A DNA stretch of 64,000 bases from the NCBI GenBank assembly GCA_951406725.2, contig OX597820.1:116932001-116996000 (forward strand), in the 5' to 3' direction. The translations under genes were made by a program, and so were the position numbers. Positions 4,185-49,298 of this stretch are shown here, piece by piece. The first letter of the stretch is position 1, and each line of letters opens with the position of its first letter. Under the pieces are notes generated by a model, which did no database searches, was not told where the DNA came from, and saw only the letters and a list, made by a program, of their open reading frames with translations. The DNA is from Octopus vulgaris. Taxonomy: Eukaryota.

Positions 4185-4331
4185 TACTAATACAAACATT
4201 ATATACACATACAAATACAGTTTTATTTCTGCTGTTCATGCATATGTGCACATAAACTTATGTGCAAATGTAGAAATAAATGCACCAATGGGCAGCAGTC
4301 ATCCAGTGTAAGCGAGTGCACATGTATATTC

Positions 4332-4902
4332 CTATTTTTACTTGTTTCAGTCATTTGACGGTGGCCATGCTGGAGTACTGCCTTTAGTCAAAGAAATCGA
4401 CCTGTGGACGTGTTCTTTGTAAGCCTAGTACTTATTCTATCAATCTCTTTTACTGAACCACTAAGTAACGGAGACATAAACACACCAATACTGGTTATCA
4501 AGTGATGGGGGAGACACACAGACACACAAACACATATATATGTATGAGTGTGTGTGTGTGTGTGTATATGTTTGTGTGTCTGTCTCTGTCCCCACCCCCA
4601 CCCCAACATCGCTTGACAACTGATGCTGGTGTGTTTACGTCCCCATAACATAGCAGTTCAGCAAAAGAGACCAATAGAATAAGTACTAGGCTTACAAAAA
4701 TAAGTCCTGGGGTAGATTTGCTTGACTAAAGGTGGTGCACCAGCATGGCCACAGTCAAATGACTGAAACAAGTAAAAGAGAAAAGAATACGATGATCTAC
4801 TTTCAGTTTCTGTCTACCAAATCCACTCACAAGGTTTGAGGCTATAGCAGAAGACACTTGCCCAAGGTACCACGCAGTGGGACTGAACCCGGAACCATGT
4901 GA
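4332..4902 (-). mobile_element. SINE family A copy with an oppositely oriented family A 3' half (~4540-4787) nested in its central microsatellite
   Basis: Minus 3' half 4332-~4540, plus 3' half ~4540-4787, minus 5' half 4788-4902. Confidence 0.85.
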
Positions 4903-7577: not shown

Positions 7578-7790
7578 TTACGGAGATGTACTTGCATAGC
7601 AAGTGATTTGATCTGAGATCGTGTGCTGAAACGAAAACAATTGCAGCGTGGAAGGTGTTTGTAAGCCATTTAAGAAACACACAAAAGCCGTTCGATTCAC
7701 TTCAACATTTAAGTTTAATTTGTCAAAATATTTTCATCGCTATAAGACCGCGACCTGTTCACTGACAAAAATCCGTGCTGCATCTCTGGT
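7578..7790 (-). mobile_element. Penelope-like pLTR fragment adjoining a (TA)n tract; same family as 16882-17231
   Basis: Close match to 16882-17071 (ORF track 7648 vs 16924 translations are near-identical). Confidence 0.8.
7719..7769 (-). ncRNA. Hammerhead-fold RNA with variant G3:C8 core
   Basis: Minus strand UUUGUCA-GUGAACA-G-GUCGC(GGUCUUAUA)GCGAU-GAAA-AUAU-U-U-UGACAAA: perfect 7-bp stem I, 5-bp stem II, palindromic AAUAUU stem III. Confidence 0.7.
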
Positions 7791-13033: not shown

Positions 13034-13354
13034 CCCTTTTGTTACAGTATTTTTGTTTAAACTATTCTTATATCTGTTATTTTTGAAAATAACGAAGAAT
13101 TCACTAAAGCAATTTTGTCATAATTAAACTGGTCTATTCTATTCTATTACTCTATTACTTGTTTCAGTCATTTGACTGCGGCCATGCTGGAGCACCGCCT
13201 TTAGTCGAGCAAATCTACCCCAGGACTTATTCTTTGTAAGCCCAGTACTTATTCTATCGGTCTCTTTTGCCGAACCGCTAAGTGACGGGAACGTAAACAC
13301 ATCAGCATCGGTTGTCAAGCAATGCTAGGGGGACAAACACAGACACACAAACAT

Positions 13355-13397
<43 letters not shown>

Positions 13398-13659
13398 CGA
13401 CAGGCTTCTTTCAGTTTCCGTCTACCAAATCCACTCACAAGGCTTTGGTTGGCCCGAGGCTATAGTAGAAGACACTTGCCCAAGATGCCACACAGTGGGA
13501 CTGAACCCGGAACCATGTGGTTGGTAAGCAAGCTACTTACCACACAGCCACTCTTAATTAAAACCTATTAAATTTTATGTAAATTTAAGATCACTTTAGA
13601 ACAGGAAGTCAGCATTAGAGAATAAAGGGTTGTCTCAGGAAGGTTGGTATCAAAAAGGG
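13034..13659. mobile_element. Old piggyBac-like MITE interrupted by a family A SINE
   Basis: Ends CCCTTTTGTTAC / GTATCAAAAAGGG are imperfect inverted repeats; TTAA flanks are degenerate. Confidence 0.45.
13153..13553 (-). mobile_element. SINE family A, near full length
   Basis: Near-consensus reverse-complement copy. Confidence 0.92.
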
Positions 13660-16741: not shown

Positions 16742-16881
16742 AATCTGTTAACAGCATTTTAATATAGGATCACAGTGTTAGCTGCTGTTATTTAACTCTA
16801 GGTCAGCCTTGATCAAGCAAGCCTATGATCAAAGGCATTCCATCCATGACCGTGTCTATCTAGCACTACATTATTCATTAT

Positions 16882-17231
16882 TATGGAGATGTACTTGCAT
16901 AGCAAGTGACCTGATCTAAGATCGTGTGCTGGAACGAAAACAATTGCAGCGTGGAAGGTGTTTCTGAGCCATTTAAGAAACACACAGAAACTGTTAGATT
17001 CACTTCAACATTTAAATTTAATTTGCCAAAATATTTTCATCACTTTGAGACTGCGATCTTTTCACTGACAAGATTTAGCACAGAGACACAGCACAGAATT
17101 TTATCAGTGATCAGGTCGTGGTCTGAAAGTGACGAAAATATTTTGGCAAATTAAATTTAAATGTTGAAGTGCATCTAACGGTTTTTGTGCTTTTTTTAAT
17201 GGCTTATAAACACCTTCCGCACTGGAGTTGT
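16882..17231. mobile_element. Palindromic Penelope-like element with two G3-type hammerhead motifs in opposite orientation
   Basis: Inverted arms ~16935-17068/17104-17231; TSD TTATTCATTAT at 16871-16881 and 17232-17242; interrupts a family E repeat. Confidence 0.8.
17101..17150 (+). ncRNA. Hammerhead-fold RNA, G3:C8 core variant (second copy)
   Basis: UUAUCA-GUGAUCA-G-GUCGU(GGUCUGAAA)GUGAC-GAAA-AUAU-U-U-UGGCAAA. Confidence 0.65.
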
Positions 17232-23337: not shown

Positions 23338-23740
23338 AGCTAATATGGCAGTCCATAAATATAAGACTAAAGCTGCTGTTGATCAGCTCCAAGAGGCCAT
23401 TGCCTCTAGCTAGCTATATGACACACGAACCTGCGTCCATTACAACCTTCGAACAGGGGAGGACAGCCGCTTCACCTTGCTGGTCAGACATCTGCAGACA
23501 TGTTTCAGGGTTGTTGCCCTTCATCAATGCAGAGTAGCCAGACCTCCCCTGTTCGAAGGTTATAATGGACACAGGTTCGTGTGTCATATAGCTAGCTAGA
23601 GGCAATGGCCTCTTGGAGCTAATCAACGGCAGCTTTAGTCTTATATATATGGACTGCCATATTAGCTTGGCGATAACTGTTAATTTCCAGTACCGCTGCC
23701 GTAGTCTCCTTTAGAGAGACTTAGAAATTTTAATATTTCT
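23338..23740. mobile_element. Palindromic Penelope-like element with ~128-bp arms and a hammerhead motif in the loop
   Basis: Arms 23335-23462/23543-23670 are near-perfect inverted repeats; TSD ATCTATAGCACCA at 23325-23337, right copy split by the SINE at 23748-24151. Confidence 0.8.
23491..23533 (-). ncRNA. Minimal type I hammerhead ribozyme motif (C3 mutated to U)
   Basis: Minus strand UCUGCA-UUGAUGA-AGGG(CAACAA)CCCU-GAAA-CAUG-U-C-UGCAGA; perfect stem I, palindromic ACAUGU stem III, GUC site. Confidence 0.78.
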
Positions 23741-27927: not shown

Positions 27928-28179
27928 AGAATAAGTTATTGGGTGGCTGCCTTATTTCGTGACCAAAACAAACTTTTTCCTCCCAATTACCACAGTAATG
28001 TCTAGTGAAGAGCTGTGTGTGGGGGTGTATGCATGCCTCCAGCGCCAAAAAAAGTGCTGTCGCCAAAACAGTCAGCTGTGCCAAATCATCTCATTCCAGG
28101 GGACGACAGAATCGTTGCAACAAACAACACTTTGTGATGTTTCGCTCTGTTGCAGTTCTCTTTCATTATATTTACTCTC

Positions 28180-28396
28180 TTTTACTCTTTTATTTGTTTC
28201 AGTCATTTAACTGCGGCCATGCTGGAGCACCGCCTTTAGTCGAGCAAATCGACCCCGGGACTTATTCTTTGTAAGCCCAGTACTTATTCTATCAGTCTCT
28301 TTTGCTGAACTGCTAAGTGACGGGGACGTAAACACACCAGCATCGGTTGTCAAGCAATGCTAGGGGGACAAACATAGACACACAAACACATACACA

Positions 28397-28438
<42 letters not shown>

Positions 28439-28603
28439 TACGACAGGCTTGTTTCAGTTTCCGTCTACCAAATCCACTCACAAGGTATTGGTCAGCCCGG
28501 GGCTATAGCAGAAGACACTTGCCCAAGATGCCACGCAGTGGGACTGAACCCGGAACCGTGTGGTTGGTAAGCAAGCTACTTACCACACAGCCACTCCTGC
28601 ACC
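28180..28603 (-). mobile_element. SINE family A, full length
   Basis: Near-consensus reverse-complement copy. Confidence 0.92.
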
Positions 28604-29157
28604 TTATTTTATTCAACTGAGAAGAGGGATAAGGGCCAAGGCAGCCAAACTAGCAGCACTGGTAGTTTAATCAGTATAAACTGGTACCACAGAGGGTGGT
28701 GGTACTATTTTGCGAATGTTGTAATTGCGGTATCAGTAAGTGTGTGTCACTTGTTATGAAAAGAGACTAGAAGAGCAGCTCTTGTGGTGAAGTATTTGGT
28801 TACTGGTAGTTATAAGAGATCAAATACAACTTAACAGGATCTAAAGTAATGTTGACTGGAACATTTGCAGGAAATTGAAATGAAAAAACGAAAATTTTCT
28901 TTTTTAGTATTTTGGTTTTTAAAAGTGCTATGTAGAGCAGTAGCGCCGAAATGAGTATAACATCTGAGGGTGAAAGAAGAGGTGAAGTGACAAGTGTGAG
29001 AGGGAGGGGGATGGAAAGAGAGAGAGAGAGACATACATAGAATGGATATACAACAGAGATATATACAGTTAAAAAAAAAATGAGCTAAGGGAAATAATTC
29101 AAATGGTGCCAGTGGTATAATTTTGAATAAACAAGTTGAGGGGTGATATACTGAAAA

Positions 29158-47225: not shown

Positions 47226-48068
47226 ATTTGTACTACAGAGCCAGAGCCGGTTTCAGCCGGGTTGGTAACGAAAGGGTCACGCTGTGTGCGTGAGAGAGAA
47301 AGGGAGCGAGAGGGGATCAATCAAATTAAATGATTAACCCAAAACTGTTAAACTCCTCTCTAGAGGGGAAGAAACAGAAAAATGACATCCTTTTGATAAC
47401 CATCTCCTTTTAAAATGGTGGTAGTAGAAGTAGTATTAGTAGTAGTGGTGGTGGTGGAAGAGCCCATCAAACATTAGAAATCATACAACACACTAGAATT
47501 TAGGCCATTTGCTTCTTTTTTTTTTAAATGTATTTTTTTTTTAATCTTATATTTTTGTTCAGTAAAAAGAAAGGGAAATTCTCAAGTACTACTCACAGAC
47601 ATTTATGTCTGAGTGACTGCAATGAGTGTGACTTCCTGTACAATCAATTTCCAAAACATGAGGCTGCAGCAGTAACAACAACAACAACAACAACATCATC
47701 ATCAGCAGCAGTAGTAGCAGTAGAAGTAGTAGCAACAACAGTGGTAGCTGCAGTAGTTGTGAGGTAGGAGGAATAGTAAGAGAAGGGTTTTAGAGAGACT
47801 CCCTGAAAGCAGCTGTCGACGTTACAGTCAAAATTCCTGGATGTTTGAATAAAGTAAACGGTGGGTTGTTGGCGGGGGTGGAAGGTATGGGAAGGGCTGA
47901 GATGGTAAAATACAGAAGCATCATATTAACCATGTACAGGAGATCCAGCATCTTAACGCTGAAGGAAACCCTACTGCCATCACTACTATGTCTGCAGGGC
48001 CTTCCCCCATCACCCACCACTCAATTCTCATGTCTACTGGCATCATTTGTAATATATATATATATATA

Positions 48069-49298
48069 TATTCTTTTACTTGTTTCAGTCATTTGATTGC
48101 GGCCATGCTGGAGCACCGCCTTTAGTCGAGCAAATTGACCCCGGGACTCATTCTTTGTAAGCCCAGTACTTATTCTATCGGTCTCTTTTGCCGAACCGCT
48201 AAGTAACGGGGACATAAACACACCAACATCGGTTGTCAAGCAATGCTAGGGGGACAAACACAGACACACAAACAAACACACATACATATATATATATATA
48301 CATATATACGACAGGCTTCTTTCAGTTTCCTCCAAATCCACTCACAAGGCATCGGCCCGGGGCCACTAGCAGAAGACACTTGCCCAGATGCCACGCAGTG
48401 TCTGAACCTGGCATGTGGCTGGTTTGCAAGCTATATATATATGCGATATATATTCTTTTACTTGTTTCAGTCATTTGATTGCGGCCATGCTGGAGCACCG
48501 CCTTTAGTCGAGCAAATTGACCCCAGGACTTATTCTTTGTAAGCCCAGTACTTATTCTATCCGTCTCTTTTGCCGAACCGCTAAGTTACGGGGACGTAAA
48601 CACACCAGCATCAGTTGTCAAGCAATGCTAGGGGGACAAACACAGACACACAAACACACACATACATACATATATATATATATACATATATACGACAGGC
48701 TTCTTTCAGTTTCCGTCTACCAAATCCACTCACAAAGCATTGGTCGGCCCGGGGCTATAGCAGAAGACACTTGCCCAAGATGCCACGCAGTGGGACTGAA
48801 CCCGGAACCATGTGGTTGGTTAGCAAGCTACTTACCACACAGCCACTCCTGCGCCTATATATATATATATTCTTTTACTTGTTTCAGTCATTTGACTGCG
48901 GCCATGCTGAAGCACCACCTTTTAGTTGAGCAAATCAACCCCTAGTCTTTGTAAGGCTAGTACTTATTCTATCCGTCTCTTTTGCCAAACTGCTAAGTTA
49001 CAGGGATGTAAACACACCAGCATCAGTTGTCAAGCAATCTTGGGGGGACAAGCGCAGACACACAAGCACAAACACACACATATATATACATATATACGAT
49101 GAGCTTCTTTCAGTTTCCGTCTACCATTTATATATATATACACATACATATATACATGATGAGCTTCTTTCAGAATCCACTCACAAGGCTTTGGTCAGCC
49201 CAAGGGTTTAGTAGGAGACACTTGCTCAAGGTGCCACGCCATGACACTGAACCCGGAACCAAGTGGTTCGTAAGCAAGCTACTTACCACACAGCCACT
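48069..49298 (-). mobile_element. Head-to-tail array of three family A SINEs
   Basis: Tails restart at ~48069, ~48452 and ~48869, each preceded by (TA)n. Confidence 0.9.

Follow-up and report, generated by a model that had tools for sequence, protein, structure and literature searches.

The window analysed here is a 64-kb stretch of Octopus vulgaris DNA, and in it we found three hammerhead-like motifs, all at the positions noted earlier. The earlier note had claimed a type I topology for them, which was confirmed by reading the sequence and by a topology scan. We refer to the G3:C8 Penelope-like family of the window as family A and to its sister as family B. The features are as follows.

7578..7785, minus strand: copy 1 of family A, a short copy consisting of the pLTR only, spanning the common 5′ start through the 3′ end, with (TA)n directly after it
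7719..7769, minus strand: hammerhead motif of copy 1, minimal type I, found by topology scan and folding
7769-7763 with 7725-7719, minus strand: stem I of copy 1, TTTGTCA with TGACAAA
7762-7756, minus strand: core of copy 1, GTGAACA, with G3 at 7762 and C8 at 7757; the extra G is at 7755
7735-7726, minus strand: GAA (7735-7733), palindrome AATATT (7732-7727) and U17 (7726) of copy 1, whose stem II is GTCGC/GCGAT
Between 7726 and 7725, minus strand: predicted cut site of copy 1
7578..7669, minus strand: ORF stub of about 31 codons in copy 1, with an inferred ATG start at 7669
16879..17072, minus strand: copy 2, an older pLTR arm, 90% identical to copy 1; motif at 17072-17022 with the decayed core GUGAAAA
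17081..17233, plus strand: copy 3, the inverted partner arm, 84% identical to copy 1; motif at 17100-17150 with the core GUGAUCA

The 39 other best genomic copies match copy 1 at 97-99% identity. The A+1 of copy 1 lies at 7785, the preceding G (window position 7786) is absent from long copies, and 56 nt separate the predicted cut from the ORF stub downstream of it. Copies 2 and 3 count once, as arms of a single inverted insertion, which leaves two insertions in the window rather than three; the 3′ boundary of copy 3 is near the shorter 3′ end of family A. The core of copy 2, GTGAAAA, amounts to a decayed G3:A8. This core had been assigned to the third copy but sits in the second one listed (17072-17022, minus strand). 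None of the window copies is a tandem array.

When positions 3 and 8 were left free, the topology scan of the 64 kb returned four matches, namely the three copies and one unrelated motif, and the motif pattern occurred twice in the window versus never in 100 shuffles. Stems I and II make up the minimum-energy fold of copy 1 (z -2.3). Copy 2 adopts the same fold but no better than shuffles (z -0.9), and the minimum-energy fold of copy 3 differs from this shape. Young copies show a 7-bp stem I and a 5-bp stem II in the minimum-energy fold, in a three-way topology with the ends in stem I. The Rfam search of the window listed 82 matches at E<=5, none of them a hammerhead, in keeping with the earlier claim that standard searches miss the motif. 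The modest z-scores and the missing Rfam match would suit a chance likeness to a hammerhead in an A+T-rich hairpin of a repeat, a reading that we find scarcely credible in view of the relatives described below.

The unrelated motif belongs to another family (23470-23560, minus strand, core at 23527) and lies inside an inverted repeat fragment. It reads UUGAUGA (U3 with G8, possibly a decayed C3), with a short stem II, GAA ACAUGU C and a 6-bp stem I. Interspersed repeats of 200-450 nt, which we take to be SINE-like octopus repeats, are abundant on both strands (4326-4581, 13143-13561, 28178-28604, 48064-48856 and others); one of them flanks copy 1 and another lies near copy 2.

The Penelope-like element that carries the motif

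The genome (2.8 Gb in 227 contigs) was searched with the window unit of 208 nt, which gave 1,625 candidate copies at first look. Family A copies end in (TA)n, are variably truncated at the 5′ end and often have an inverted partner. Two 3′ end points recur throughout the family, one near +146 and one near +208 or later, leaving a tail of about 60 nt of the kind known from Penelope elements. By walking upstream through longer copies, we found about 1-1.3 kb of microsatellite-rich untranslated DNA and then an ORF, which carries reverse transcriptase (RT) motifs, a CX3CXXC linker and a GIY-YIG-type nuclease at its C-terminus. The 839-aa open frame of locus L099 shows, by eye, the motifs RYVDD, VY..YIG, E..H, E and N, and the family A protein P0002 carries the linker CQSNCAVC and the CCHH residues. 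P0002 had no Pfam match; RVT_1 was found in 4 of its 26 aligned homologues and GIY-YIG in 3 of the 26, and a search of solved structures gave weak RT matches only.

We then related the ORF to the motif unit in the 20 best RT hits after the query itself, of 40 scored. The unit lies downstream of the ORF on the same strand in 16 of these 20 copies, in 15 of them at about 1 kb; one of the 16 units is only 43 nt and one is displaced by an insertion. Of the remaining copies, two have the unit inverted upstream and two have no unit. At locus L100 the 3′ end of the unit continues into the ORF, and this stretch aligns with the N-terminus of the family B protein, indicating that the unit is the pLTR of the element. 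The layout of family A is therefore ORF, an untranslated stretch of about 1 kb, pLTR with the motif, ORF stub and (TA)n. Among 26 ORF-bearing stretches, none proved to be an intact, full-length copy with a pLTR at each end. The second protein query recovered only families A and B among 57 scored hits, as judged by place and score.

These results show that the three window motifs are the pLTR ends of a Penelope-like retroelement, and the retroelement family proposed earlier is thereby identified as one with an RT and GIY-YIG-type nuclease ORF next to the motif unit. Its features are those of EN+ Penelope-like elements: a single RT and GIY-YIG-type ORF, a pLTR with hammerhead and ORF start, 5′ truncation, inverted arms and a 3′ tail. 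A CX2-5CxxC linker before the nuclease, a CCHH motif and (TA)n targets, all features of Neptune and Nematis, are present as well. Judged by published descriptions rather than by reference elements, the predicted domain order and linker fit the Neptune or Nematis clade. The accessible part of Craig et al. 2021 (PMC8557442) describes the same order of RT, CX2-5CxxC linker and GIY-YIG-type nuclease, two Cys between the VY and YIG motifs with two later His, (TA)n targets, tandem and inverted pLTRs, and a 3′ tail. Unlike the elements described there, family A reads DKS at the DKG motif, and P0002 has no Pfam match.

Some G3:C8 units are arranged otherwise. One tandem array comprises 30 copies of 166 nt (L031 2589-7529; G000:C2:17.908-17.913 Mb) and another, at L058 1840-3159, at least 8 of about 172 nt. 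Short hammerhead units derived from the pLTR also stand in tandem in non-LTR retrozymes, as far as the accessible text describes them (bioRxiv 10.64898/2026.07.22.740005); family A, whose arrays were seen in genomic DNA, differs from these in its G3:C8 core and in having no stable monomer stem III. In addition, an inverted two-arm unit occurs dozens of times (L113, L126-L130, L139, L148 and others on C1). It carries a U-G variant of stem I, and 20 and 19 arms share the starts +14 and +27. Since an identical junction recurs dozens of times, this unit was amplified again as a block.

Positions 3 and 8 in family A and its relatives

The 3:8 tertiary pair of the hammerhead is established by crystallography and engineered swaps, and any Watson-Crick pair at 3:8 is reported to work in engineered type III ribozymes. 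The earlier note had proposed that G3:C8 is family-wide, and the genome searches agree. With positions 3, 7 and 8 free, 98 of the 100 listed matches, out of 1,090, carry G3:C8. A shorter pattern gave 5,632 exact G3:C8 matches versus 173 with another base at position 3; among the 100 listed of these 173, C3 occurs in 11, all of which keep C8. No C3:G8 was seen among those 100, and a canonical C3:G8 subfamily within family A was rejected on this count. We also picked 99 arms by a downstream anchor alone, in the order of chromosome C1, from 3,533 matches; about a third of this sample is one secondarily amplified inverted unit. The whole motif was present in 80 of the 99 arms, with the core GTGAACA in 76 of the 80, GAA in 77, AATATT in 78 and U17 in all 80. 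Collapsing shared junctions reduced 236 arms to 125 independent copies, of which 111 have G:C at 3:8. The other core bases of the family (U4, G5, A6, A9, G12, A13, A14, A15.1-U16.1 and H17) are intact. In place of the literal core CUGANGA, family A has GUGAACA.

Variation among the copies tells a different story from the pairing of stem II that had been put forward as evidence. Among the 125 independent copies, changed pairs were kept in 27 cases and broken in 30, mostly by CpG decay, which is neutral decay, and covariation of stem II within the family was rejected. Non-majority letters make up 2.0% of the core columns versus 1.8% of the 3′ non-coding flank, so the core is no more conserved. 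Shared subfamily variants fall in 5 of 8 non-CpG columns of loop 2 and in none of the core, stem II, stem III or N17; this pattern is weak evidence because the flank also has few (2/45). In contigs from four runs with four organism labels, no variant reached 5% in the 5′ strand of stem I, the core, GAA, stem III or N17; these contigs cover the unit and carry no information on RNA ends or strand. A look for expression turned up no RNA record with the unit. Copies within family A decay neutrally.

Neutral decay would suit a dead ribozyme, that is, a decayed hammerhead in which two chance changes gave G:C and which was then passively amplified. This reading, which we rate as improbable, could also draw on the G:C state being confined to one lineage, on the 26 ORF-bearing stretches, none of which is an intact, complete element with both pLTRs, and on the route from C:G to G:C, which would take two transversions and a mismatched stage. 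However, only about one in four such outcomes would be Watson-Crick at 3:8, and other lesions would be expected. The subfamily changes avoid the core, no core variant of at least 5% appeared in the four runs, and the other core positions, both stems and the perfect 6-nt palindrome are intact although stems I and III and loop 2 were rewritten relative to family B.

Family B (L228-L257) is young, with intact frames of 1,312 aa and copies that are 99% identical. Its protein matches an NCBI-named Octopus vulgaris protein at 100% and is 54.9% identical to the family A protein over 800 aa. In 13 of 30 family B loci the motif stands on both sides of the ORF (pLTR-ORF-pLTR). The motif reads GGACCA CUGAUGC G GUCAC loop GUGAC GAA AGAACU U UGGCC in 48 of 52 copies; all 52 have C3:G8 and 51 have U at N17. 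The two families share the extra G, the 5-bp stem II, GAA, the 6-nt stem III and U17, and stem II of family B (GUCAC/GUGAC) shows a compensatory change, with A-U where family A has G-C. Stems I and III and loop 2 are rewritten between them. A direct DNA alignment of the two pLTRs did not place the motifs against each other; their correspondence is drawn from the agreement of structure, position and protein homology. Family B has C instead of A at position 9, and its stem III, AGAACU, is not a palindrome.

A metagenome scan added 58 related loci, 24 of which have sequence after the ORF end. The strict motif scan of all 58 gave 8 motifs versus 0.57 per shuffled set. Relaxing the scan for the 24 and leaving positions 3 and 8 open gave 12 motifs located 100-400 nt downstream of the ORF, versus 0.375 hits per shuffled set. 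The extra base is present in all 12 and the 6-nt palindrome in 11. At 3:8 the 12 motifs read C:G in seven, U:A in four and A:U in one, all Watson-Crick; among the shuffled hits, 22 of 75 were Watson-Crick. Together with families A and B, the pair is Watson-Crick in 14 of 14 motifs, of which G:C comes from one lineage only and the relatives are not fully independent. If position 8 is dealt at random, this gives p ~1e-5, or 1.6e-4 when five close C:G relatives are counted once, other kinship being ignored. All 14 retain G5, A6, G12, A13, A14 and a non-G at 17, which the design of the scan itself partly ensures. Of 8 scan-negative loci inspected, a looser scan added one with U:A, and reading by eye suggests C:G in three others, which carry lesions elsewhere. 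The unrooted 21-row tree groups A with B at a support of 100 and places U:A on several branches; deep support is weak.

Three of these loci deserve separate mention. L295 has a candidate natural A3:U8 hammerhead about 385 nt after the ORF end. L258 carries, about 90 nt after the ORF end, a motif that by eye looks like C3:G8, with U15.1:A16.1 and the palindrome UAGCUA. L259 shows U3:A8 with C9 at 2496.

Taken together, the predicted motifs of this one clade use all four Watson-Crick pairs at 3:8. Since the pair takes all four standard forms in relatives, the fold is likely still under selection, and the C3:G8 of the sister family together with the tree suggests that G:C was derived from C:G. 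The clade appears to tolerate departures in the core, given that family B and L259 carry C9. The 3:8 covariation that had been predicted thus holds across related families and fails within family A. Canonical CUGANGA hammerheads, with the extra base and the 6-nt palindrome, occupy the same pLTR position in relatives, and family B, the scan of the relatives and the shuffles leave the chance reading close to refuted.

Much of this architecture is already published. Minimal palindromic hammerheads at Penelope ends and a natural U3:A8 swap have been reported, to judge from the accessible parts of PMC4209133 and PMC3088659. In the former (Cervera and De la Pena 2014), the minimal pLTR hammerheads have an extra base and a palindromic stem III and cleave weakly as dimers, and a variant with U3:A8 is included. 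Family A resembles this metazoan set in the type I form, the extra base between 9 and 10.1, G10.1-C11.1, the palindromic stem III, the pLTR location and the mostly solitary or inverted copies, and the natural U3:A8 swap there is from Schistosoma. It differs in having G3:C8, an extra G (A or U there) and the palindrome AAUAUU, and its wider clade also shows A3:U8. The variants of Perreault et al. 2011 (PMC3088659) are likewise compensatory 3:8 changes in nature; those in the accessible text are U3:A8 only and scattered, unlike the G3:C8 fixed in thousands of family A copies.

Folding, copy ends and the question of cleavage

Our preferred reading, which we hold to be fairly probable from the comparisons above, is that the pLTR motif, G3:C8 throughout family A, likely keeps the catalytic fold and would act as a slow, conditional cutter after AAUAUUU. 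Several observations bear on the speed of such a cut. Stem III of the monomer is a single base pair. For the natural 166-nt tandem units, a model without tertiary terms puts two monomers 2-3 kcal/mol ahead of the double hammerhead and gives stem III a pairing probability of 0.01-0.04. The predicted fold pairs G3 with U17 as a wobble, which extends stem I over the cut site and resembles the 3-17 trap described in the accessible part of PMC3884650, where the 3:8 pair is reported to form in the active conformation.

We also examined where copies start. Of the starts of 72 independent arms, 45 precede stem I, a further 8 precede the cut site, 5 fall no more than three bases from it and 14 follow it. 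In 53 of the 72 the start is thus upstream of the cut site, and these arms retain most or all of the motif. By hand count, 100 listed of 155 matches gave 24 apparent starts at the cut site versus 3-14 at each of the next eight positions; two of nine checked starts were point mutants, and several had microhomology. The 100 listed of 151 upstream matches gave 3, 4, 6, 12, 9, 3, 13 and 11 at positions -7 to 0. Among the listed matches, no sharp peak of 5′ starts stands at the cut site, and apparent starts spread from -4 to +8. A start peak as a sign of cleavage was rejected, as stalling at the hairpin explains the counts equally well. Cleavage would probably be slow: stem III calls for a dimer, a G3-U17 wobble is predicted, 53 of 72 arms start upstream, and no sharp peak is seen.

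An extra G precedes A+1 in 22 of 27 copies that start at A+1 and is absent from long copies. It is either a copied cap or a spliced exon end, and on both accounts the RNA template began upstream of the motif. Just upstream of A+1, long copies show a branch-point-like, pyrimidine-rich stretch and CAG (L021 1476-1503); no splice donor for a possible 5′ intron was found in the three long copies inspected. Most of the RNA copied into the genome appears to be uncut.

Uncut templates would also be expected if the fold were kept for a role other than cutting, as a site of protein binding or dimerisation or as a signal for reverse transcription, with 3:8 preserved for the sake of the fold. We regard this as unlikely, although it is the most probable of the alternatives. 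Odd cores recur, with C9 in family B and L259 and U15.1:A16.1 in L258. As reported in the accessible part of PMC11167929, cleavage mutants of Anolis Penelope insert normally in vitro and no RNA ends are seen at the cut site, and the excerpted PMC4209133 notes low activity and leaves other functions open. Against it, the 3:8 pair belongs to the active conformation (PMC3884650, as excerpted), and the retention of G5, A6, G12, A13, A14 and a non-G at 17 in 14 of 14 motifs, partly built in by the scan, fits catalysis.

In the preferred reading of a slow, conditional cutter, cutting would probably occur only as a dimer or with the help of the element's protein. Transcripts would start about 23 nt upstream of G3, and a cut would shed the first 60 nt, which precede the start codon; alternatively, it would release unit-length RNAs from tandem repeats. 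The PAc Penelope/Poseidon element of Anolis offers the nearest precedent in the accessible text of PMC11167929: its hammerhead cuts only with protein, uncut RNA is the main template, and a C3G/G8C double change partly restores activity. As in family A, its hammerhead lies next to the ORF start and there are two 3′ end points. The G3:C8 pair is engineered there and natural in family A, and the CX3CXXC linker of family A is absent from Poseidon. The single change G8C is reported to cost 1e5-fold in activity (PMC8495972, as excerpted). Excerpts of PMC6765202, PMC7761336 and PMC6155905 provide context.

The history we propose is that a C3:G8 ancestor would have passed through a mismatched stage and been repaired by a second change to G3:C8. 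If so, such a loss and repair of the pair would imply that cutting is useful in the long term and not needed in every round.

What the 3:8 variants mean for Penelope hammerheads

No natural G3:C8 or A3:U8 hammerhead was found in the literature searched, several key hammerhead papers, some of which may treat 3:8 variants, being outside its reach. The comparative evidence, as far as predicted motifs go, is solid. It may be, at slightly under an even chance, that family A is the first natural, family-wide and active G3:C8 hammerhead, in a marine Penelope-like clade that uses all four 3:8 pairs and tolerates C9 and U15.1:A16.1.

If this were true, searches with descriptors fixed on CUGANGA would have missed whole families, and Penelope clades reported without hammerheads may carry such variants. 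More than 5,600 swapped motifs lie in one genome, and the window copies are invisible to an Rfam-type search; descriptors and covariance models for ribozymes should accept any pairing bases at 3:8. The occurrence of C:G, U:A, A:U and G:C within one clade would amount to comparative proof of the 3:8 pair. One genome also supplies a test pair, an older G3:C8 family and a young, intact sister with C3:G8 and C9. Penelope hammerheads are poor cutters that appear dispensable in vitro, which leaves their role in question, and the variety at 3:8 would show selection on their active-site fold.
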